Assembly: GCF_003334335.1 (NCBI RefSeq)
Contig: NZ_QOWQ01000051.1
Length of the DNA: 21,033 nt
Source of the DNA: Escherichia coli
GTDB taxonomy: Bacteria > Pseudomonadota > Gammaproteobacteria > Enterobacterales > Enterobacteriaceae
Strand: one strand, 5' to 3'
The notes below the pieces were generated by a model. That model was not told the origin of the DNA. It was given only the letters and a program-made list of their open reading frames with translations, and did no database searches. This document shows, piece by piece, positions 15,341-15,726 of the stretch (within the stretch, counting starts at the first letter, position 1; each line of letters begins with the position of its first letter). The translations under genes were made by a program, and so were the position numbers.

Positions 15341-15485
15341 GGCTTACTTTCTCTGCTGTAATGGTATGGGCGATTTTGTGCACGCAAATCCGGCAGTGAC
15401 ACAAGGTGAGGTATTAAATAGAGGGGGAGTGAAAGGGGCAAATTATTAATAGGATGAAAAAATAATTAAATTATTAAAGGGCTAG

Positions 15486-15602
15486 ATATCAGGCATCGTC
15501 ATAACACATTGCACGAACCGTAGGCCTGATAAGACGCGCAGCGTCGCATCAGGCATCGGCGCACGATTGCCGGATGCGGCGTAAACGCCTTATCCGGCCT
15601 AC
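15486..15602. repeat. REP pair (BIME) inside the lfiM / lafK divergent intergenic region
   Basis: gtaggcctgataagacgcgcagcgtcgcatcaggc and tgccggatgcggcgtaaacgccttatccggcctac are the same REP families as at 4881-5017 and 8891-9095, in inverted orientation. Confidence 0.75.
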
Positions 15603-15726
15603 ATGGATAACTCATTGTTTACCATAAAATAATATTTTTATTATCGTTTAATTCGAACTTGTTAATCCCGCCGGTGATACGCTTCACAATATCCTGTTTT
15701 CTGTCGCTACTGATATCGTTCACCCT

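Follow-up and report, generated by a model that had tools for sequence, protein, structure and literature searches.

Two groups of described systems are close enough to the DNA examined here to serve as points of reference. The first one is that of lateral flagella: in Aeromonas hydrophila, class I lateral-flagellar transcription, including that of lafK, is reported to be sigma-70-dependent (PMC4481668), and in Vibrio parahaemolyticus a motif search placed RpoN sites at flgB2, lafA and lafB, not at lafK or fliM (PMC9817140). The second one is that of REPs, or repetitive extragenic palindromes, with REP325 as the model Z2/Y array; the RNA family naRNA4, whose proposed nucleoid role is contested, corresponds to a single Z2 and a single Y palindromic unit of REP325, whose 3' stabiliser and attenuator functions are documented at the RNA level and for which no nucleoid role was found, REP function being placed in 3' untranslated regions (UTRs), and about 1% of E. 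coli REPs lie between divergent genes, versus about 40% between tandem and about 60% between convergent ones (2026 preprint). We present here a locus at which the two meet, namely the 386-bp region (15341-15726) between the divergent genes lfiM and lafK of Flag-2, a second, lateral-type flagellar locus, in a stretch of 21,033 nucleotides of Escherichia coli DNA (contig NZ_QOWQ01000051.1; hereafter “the window”); this region contains a pair of inverted REP palindromes. An earlier reading of the region (hereafter “the original prediction”) had rightly regarded REPs between divergent genes as atypical.

We give a probability of roughly two in three to the following reading as a whole: two divergent sigma-70-type promoters are separated by a variable spacer, the REP pair is a selfish or neutral insertion tolerated in that spacer, and the region has no sigma-54 site. 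What the repeat is, its restriction to a lineage, the variability of its site, the missing sigma-54 signal and the conserved sigma-70-like motifs are shown directly by the sequences; the start sites, the sigma-factor usage and the lack of a REP function are predictions made from sequence. In this model, Flag-2 cluster 1 would be read from back-to-back sigma-70-type promoters, one half (lfiMNPQR-lfhBA) leftward and the other (lafK-lfiEFGHIJ) rightward, neither promoter being sigma-54-dependent; the lfiM-operon promoter (P_lfiM) would start transcription at about 15406 on the minus strand, giving a 5' UTR of about 66 nt, and the lafK-operon promoter (P_lafK) at about 15690 on the plus strand, giving a 5' UTR of about 37 nt. 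A Z2+Y array would have been inserted in the unconstrained spacer between the upstream regions of these promoters, in a Flag-2 lineage common to E. coli and Pseudocitrobacter, and its present state in most E. coli would be one complete unit (15520-15602) preceded by a remnant (15486-15519). Counted from the predicted starts, the pair would lie at about -88 to -170 on the lafK side and -114 to -196 on the lfiM side; being upstream of both, it would be transcribed by neither promoter, and so would not serve either operon as a terminator or as a stabiliser of mRNA 3' ends. This makes the mRNA-stability effect raised in the original prediction unlikely, and what had been described as a REP pair inside a promoter region becomes a pair in a variable spacer between two conserved core promoters. 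The sole structural consequence of the insertion would be that the promoters stand about 100 bp further apart, with a GC-rich, cruciform-prone and potentially gyrase-binding segment placed in an AT-rich control region.

The promoters were sought by comparison. Scanning one genome per species with LafK gave 80 loci, and the lfiM-lafK region was delimited in 21 Enterobacterales, three of them E. coli-type and 18 belonging to other taxa. On the lfiM side, the predicted -10 hexamer TTTAAT (15413-15418, minus strand) and the predicted -35 hexamer TTGCCC (15436-15441, minus strand) are 17 bp apart, within the 17±1 bp of the sigma-70 class, and the pattern TTGNNN-17-T[ACT][TA]AAT is found once only on the lfiM strand in all 21 regions, versus 3.7% of shuffles; this pattern had already been fixed when nine of the 21 taxa came to be examined. 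Across genera, an invariant TTG is followed by an unconserved 17-bp spacer and then by TTTAAT, TCTAAT or TTAAAT. The same holds within the species, as both hexamers are invariant in the seven E. coli alleles compared, with the polymorphisms at 15425 and 15428 falling within the 17-bp spacer. Such a combination of conserved hexamers and drifting spacer is the classical signature of a sigma-70 promoter. A generic sigma-70 scanner missed P_lfiM because it demands an A at the second position of the -10 hexamer. The original prediction had found, for the lfiM operon, no minus-strand element as good as its sigma-54 candidate on the plus strand; this is true of sigma-54 sites, but a conserved, predicted sigma-70-type promoter sits there. 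Upstream of it lies a conserved AT-rich block, GCAAATTATTAAT…AAAAAATAATTAAATTATTAA (15438-15477), recognisable by TTATTAAT or AATAATTAA motifs in Citrobacter, Phytobacter, Kluyvera and others, which may be UP-element-like or a site for a regulator or a nucleoid protein.

On the lafK side, a conserved AT-rich block, AAAATAATATTTTTATTATCGTTTAATT (15626-15653, plus strand), would occupy about -64 to -37 of P_lafK in an UP-like position; it was found conserved in 12 taxa and then in nine further ones. It is followed by a predicted extended -10 element, TG-a-TACGCT (15675-15683, plus strand), defined by comparative alignment, whose E. coli form is TGATACGCT; the Citrobacter group has TGATAGTAT or TGTTAGTAT (TGnTAGTAT) instead. 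The general pattern on this side is an AT-rich block followed by TGnTAnnnT, with GTATACT in some taxa, and distant genera have a canonical (g/a)aGACA-16-TATACT at the position of P_lafK. Among the E. coli alleles, 15626-15683 is the least polymorphic segment of the region, with two variable positions out of 58. We read this side as an UP-like element plus an extended -10 promoter, apparently degenerate in E. coli relative to other Enterobacterales, both in its -10 and in its -35. The predicted leaders of E. coli and P. faecalis (about 37 nt for lafK and about 66 nt for lfiM) are much shorter than those of other Enterobacterales, at roughly 150-240 nt. Signals of two other kinds are missing from the region: the best sigma-28 match has 10 of 16 positions of TAAAGTTT-N10-12-GCCGATAA, and 99% of shuffles do as well; no intrinsic terminator was found in it. 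ATTAAT-containing AT-rich motifs (TTATTAAT, GATTAAT, TTAATATTTTAATA) recur between the two promoters and are conserved across genera (15438-15477 and 15626-15653 in the window; L018-L028); they may serve as binding sites of a regulator or in silencing of the H-NS type. In E. coli, this shared block of motifs is divided by the REP pair.

The third element of our reading is the missing sigma-54 signal. The original prediction had proposed tGGgcgattttgtGCa (15367-15382, plus strand) as a -24/-12 element, and its GG (15368-15369) and GC (15380-15381) do stand 10 nt apart and are retained in the seven E. coli alleles. Both strands were scored with an approximate matrix, written from the consensus mrNrYTGGCACG-N4-TTGCW and reaching 22.7 bits at most, on which the candidate (scored span 15366-15383) obtains 3.8 bits; 108 sites of the window score at least as high, which makes 1.9 expected for both strands of a 386-bp stretch, and a better site turns up in 72% of the shuffles made from the region. 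The candidate has at least four mismatches to TGGCAC-N5-TTGCW, and no site with three or fewer mismatches to TGGCACNNNNNTTGCW is present in 15341-15726, the whole window having 86 of them vs 112 expected by chance. In Pseudocitrobacter faecalis, the -12 GC is replaced by GT, nothing comparable is present in Citrobacter, and no sigma-54 site of at least 11 bits was found in this region in 19 other Enterobacterales taxa. Two of the three testable features of a sigma-54 promoter, a consensus match above chance and conservation, are therefore lacking, the third one being the GG/GC spacing. The GG-N10-GC at 15367-15382 is a chance match which, with starts predicted at about 15406 (minus) and 15690 (plus), falls in the predicted lfiM leader, on the opposite strand.

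The approximate nature of the matrix is offset by the plain consensus search and by positive controls within the locus. In E. coli strain ET474, whose Flag-2 locus can be followed beyond the right end of the window, the top two scores belong to sites exactly in intergenic DNA: ATGGCATGGCGATTGCTT (16.8 bits) upstream of lfgB, and TCGGCACGCTTATTGCAC (16.7 bits) upstream of a hypothetical gene adjacent to lfgN. These near-consensus sites, TGGCAT-N5-TTGCT and CGGCAC-N5-TTGCA (L001 28810-28827, plus strand, and 27168-27151, minus strand), are probably LafK-dependent class II promoters of Flag-2; the candidate at 15367-15382 resembles the lfgB-type class II promoter in its GG-N10-GC spacing only and differs from it in score, conservation and position. 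A separate observation concerns TGGCGCTGTTGTTGCT, a site with one mismatch to the sigma-54 consensus (11.5 bits), inside lfiF at 18419-18434 (plus strand), about 280 nt upstream of lfiG; similar sites lie at about the same place in C. werkmanii (11.7 bits) and C. youngae (11.5 bits). This may be a sigma-54 site within the gene, or the coding sequence may simply be conserved; by chance, some two matches of this kind are expected per 32 kb.

The missing sigma-54 site here vs the near-consensus sites at lfgB matches the A. hydrophila hierarchy (PMC4481668), and it is also in line with the lack of RpoN motifs at lafK and fliM in V. parahaemolyticus (PMC9817140). The likeness to class I of A. hydrophila is that the divergent lafK-fliE… and fliM…flhA clusters have sigma-70-type motifs and no sigma-54 promoter, sigma-54 sites being confined to operons of later classes, lfgB for instance; in E. 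coli, the promoters are predicted. Several points weigh against our reading. The promoter positions come from comparative motifs only, and the sigma-54 matrix was built on a consensus instead of a curated site set. The -10 (TACGCT) and -35 (GAACTT) of lafK in E. coli are weak, and there is an alternative, TGGATA-18-AATAAT (15604-15633), whose -35 is one base away from the REP pair. The 386-bp length, which is constant across 1213 genomes with the REP-type allele, could mean constraint instead of recent common ancestry. In an rpoN mutant of V. parahaemolyticus, the lafK and fliMN mRNAs are reduced by quantitative reverse-transcription PCR (PMC9817140), and by analogy there may be an indirect or unusual sigma-54 dependence in E. 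coli. As for the alternative promoter, it is the sole match of the generic sigma-70 scan, with one site found vs 1.3 expected by chance; its -35 falls in the stretch where the region varies most among E. coli alleles, and we retain it as no more than an alternative. That stretch is the right junction of the repeat (15603-15625), with eight of 23 positions variable among E. coli alleles; it contains TGGATA (15604-15609) and TAACTCATTGTTT (15608-15620), the latter also found in some Citrobacter.

The repeat itself is one complete Z2+Y unit (15520-15602) of the family flanking rayT, of the BIME-2 (bacterial interspersed mosaic element 2) and REPIN-like type. It is made of a Z2 palindromic unit beginning with GTAG (15520-15554, plus strand), a 14-nt linker (15555-15568) and a Y palindromic unit with its GTAG on the minus strand (15569-15602, minus strand), so that the outer ends of the pair read GTAG…CTAC. 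The inverted-repeat search found two hairpins (15524-15554 and 15569-15598) nested in outer arms (15520-15536 and 15586-15602), and the pair folds far better than shuffles as single-stranded DNA (z = -4.2). Rfam RF02564 (naRNA4) matches 15523-15599 over model positions 1-77 of 77, with 85.9 bits vs a gathering score of 59.5; this is simply a REP family match, and no RNA family other than naRNA4/REP reached the gathering threshold in Rfam across the window. The three other naRNA4 matches of the window are at 4885-4962, 8214-8291 and 8956-9033, the last two flanking rayT, and the four Z2+Y units align at 88% mean column identity, which bears out the family assignment of the original prediction. 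Three of the features that define a REP/BIME-2 element are present, namely GTAG palindromes of about 35 nt, Z2+Y sequence and structure, and high-copy dispersal as an extragenic repeat, gyrase binding and cleavage by RayT being further marks of the class; the naRNA4-family repeat is matched, at the megablast level, in all 5426 complete E. coli genomes, with a median of 27-28 places each. The original prediction had placed two inverted REP palindromes at 15486-15602. The inverted Z2/Y pair is real, but it spans 15520-15602 in its complete form; 15486-15519 is a degenerate remnant of a further BIME unit, consisting of the 13-nt ATATCAGGCATCG (15486-15498), which repeats in direct orientation the Z2 3' end and the beginning of the linker, followed by linker-like sequence.

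BIME-1 is the class of these elements that binds IHF, and BIME-2 the one that binds gyrase. The IHF consensus WATCAANNNNTTR has no exact or one-mismatch site within 15486-15602, linker included, and one-mismatch sites are confined to the AT-rich flanks of the intergenic region. The unit being Z2+Y without an IHF consensus, only gyrase is still plausible, as a prediction, of the two partners put forward originally, and IHF binding through the REP pair is not expected. The difference from BIME-1, or RIP, elements (Y+Z1 with an IHF site) is of the same nature: these are also REP doublets, whereas the partner of Y is here Z2 and WATCAANNNNTTR is absent. With REP325, the resemblance is much closer, both having two inverted imperfect palindromes of about 35 nt, a full-length naRNA4 match, a dispersed distribution and a copy number varying between lineages; REP325, however, is an array of six pairs (12 palindromic units) and the lfiM-lafK element a single unit. 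Furthermore, this pair lies between divergent genes instead of in a 3' UTR, and is predicted not to be transcribed from its neighbours.

REP elements are also found elsewhere in and around the island. The gene rayT (8390-8887), coding for a REP-associated tyrosine transposase, lies directly at the Flag-2 border, 6.6 kb from the lfiM-lafK pair; it has one Z2+Y unit upstream (8214-8291) and, downstream, an array of about 2.5 units (8900-9090), set between rayT and the 3' end of lfhA, which is full-length. The ET474 Flag-2 locus has at least three further REP/BIME sites (L001 23475-23560, 30377-30470 and 32454-32470), the first one following the cytidylyltransferase gene and the others lying in the lfgD-lfgE and lfgF-lfgG gaps; the colonisation of the island by REPs thus extends beyond the lfiM-lafK region.

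Comparison with other Flag-2 loci, which the original prediction had suggested, indicates that the REP pair is a lineage-specific insertion, limited to one lineage and not conserved everywhere. Of the 5426 complete E. coli genomes, 1285 contain the lfiM-lafK region; the 386-bp REP-type allele is present in 1213 of them, and 58 (including SMS-3-5 and PCN033) have a 372-bp allele of the E22 type, in which about 139 bp (roughly 15470-15612, boundaries set by inspection) are swapped for about 123 bp (E22: L002 1830-1952). The replacement holds another dispersed palindromic repeat, CCCCTCGCCCCATCCGGGGAGAGGGTTAGGGTGAGGGGG, with a median of 14 occurrences per genome, which resembles Box C and may be a member of it. 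P. faecalis DSM 27453 has 6.1 tandem 100-bp Z2+Y units (L005 2260-2870) in a region of 888 bp, and has its left junction (…AAGGGTGAGATATCAGGCATCG) in common with E. coli. The E. coli remnant 15486-15519 aligns with the start of the P. faecalis array, one Y unit missing, which points to contraction in E. coli or expansion in P. faecalis of one ancestral insertion. The LafK and LfiM proteins of P. faecalis share 95% and 94% identity with their counterparts in the window, the figures for Citrobacter being 84% and 73-78%; this closeness suggests a recent horizontal exchange of Flag-2 between genera. No REP was found in the lfiM-lafK region of Citrobacter, Phytobacter, Enterobacter, Pseudescherichia, Kluyvera, Cedecea, Yersinia, Erwinia, Budvicia or Mangrovibacter, genera in which the spacer sequences are mutually unrelated.

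Among the alternatives to a tolerated insertion, the one that survives best, while still being unlikely in our view, is that the REP pair is a functional DNA-level cis-element recruiting gyrase (or HU or another nucleoid protein at a cruciform), which would tune supercoiling or insulate the divergent promoters and thereby set the expression of the Flag-2 master regulator. Transcription-generated supercoiling is strongest between divergent promoters, which is where the pair lies, and BIME-2 is the gyrase-binding class. To this can be added the constant length in 1213 of the roughly 1285 genomes carrying the region, the preservation of two strongly structured hairpins, and the expanded array at the same site in P. 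faecalis. Against it, the site is occupied by another repeat in 58 genomes, the pair is missing from the other genera examined, the copy number varies from one to six units, and E. coli polymorphisms such as those at 15598 and 15599 strike the REP stem; moreover, no nucleoid role was found for the model array REP325, and REP function is placed in 3' UTRs (2026 preprint). A more elaborate proposal finds still less favour with us: the Z2+Y unit would be a gyrase- or cruciform-dependent topological element that uncouples or re-tunes the supercoiling cross-talk between P_lfiM and P_lafK and, together with the degenerate -10 and -35 of lafK and the lack of a ribosome-binding signal before it, keeps Flag-2 silent or conditionally inducible, the allelic states representing lineage-specific set-points.

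We are just as doubtful that the pair is transcribed in a long 5' leader of lafK, from a promoter to its left, so that RNA hairpins would attenuate or stabilise the lafK mRNA. REPs do act as RNA terminators or stabilisers once transcribed (2026 preprint), lafK leaders of about 200 nt are predicted in other genera, and the lack of a Shine-Dalgarno sequence before lafK might hint at an unusual post-transcriptional control. However, no above-chance plus-strand site of the sigma-70-like, sigma-54 or sigma-28 type was found to the left of the pair, the conserved promoter-like block stands to its right, and in the genera with long leaders the extra length is downstream of the conserved -10, not upstream. 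Finally, it is barely credible that lafK has a real but weak sigma-54 promoter at 15367-15382, perhaps under autoregulation by LafK: the correct spacing, its retention in seven E. coli alleles and the V. parahaemolyticus precedent (lafK reported as class 1 and 2, with less mRNA in the rpoN mutant) speak for it, but the 3.8 bits are to be set against the 16.7-16.8 bits of the in-locus sites, most shuffles do better, the consensus mismatches and the changes in P. faecalis and Citrobacter remain, and a site 27 bp from the lfiM start codon would need a leader of about 335 nt running through the REP pair.

The setting of the region was established from open reading frames (ORFs) and from the RefSeq annotation of a 99%-identical region of ET474. 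The window is chromosomal and reads yafV-ivy-fadE-lpcA-yafJ-dpaA-yafQ/dinJ-yafL-rayT, followed by the start of the Flag-2 locus, in which lfhA-lfhB-lfiRQPNM occupy the minus strand and lafK-lfiEFGH… the plus strand. The left border of the intergenic region is the lfiM start codon (CAT, 15338-15340, minus strand; ORF 14489-15340, with an annotated orthologue in ET474), the product of lfiM being a switch protein of the FliM/FliN family; to the right is lafK (15727-16713, plus strand; ORF, annotated orthologue and protein matches in relatives), whose ATG is at 15727. The GC content is 0.541 over the window; in the intergenic region, it is 0.372 outside the repeat and 0.627 within the REP pair. 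The length and AT-richness of the region were correctly given by the original prediction, which had also rightly seen no clean Shine-Dalgarno sequence in front of lafK: none precedes its ATG, the upstream sequence reading …ATATCGTTCACCCT-ATG. LafK is a 328-aa sigma-54 activator without a receiver domain, about 30 residues separating its start from the Walker A motif. We considered that an N-terminal receiver domain had been lost to the REP insertion and rejected this idea, as gammaproteobacterial relatives match from residues 1-5; the matched lafK coding stretches in relatives are of similar length (921-1056 bp, about 307-352 codons). In E. coli O6:H16 M9682-C1 (L003 1629-2400), the intergenic region is 100% identical to that of the window, and an IS1 lies in the 5' part of lfiM and truncates the gene, which is one example of Flag-2 inactivation by an insertion sequence.

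Largely, the finding is an ordinary one. REP biology is little changed: the commonest repeat of E. coli is found here in a further copy, whose position is documented although uncommon. The by-product for Flag-2 is a prediction that the divergent operons of cluster 1, including the one with the master activator gene lafK, are under conserved sigma-70-type promoters, with near-consensus sigma-54 sites only at later Flag-2 operons such as lfgB. Its modest value is that of a testable promoter map of the Flag-2 master-regulator region: the exact hexamers, together with the natural alleles (the REP pair, the other dispersed repeat and the six-unit array), are usable for asking why Flag-2 appears silent in E. 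coli.

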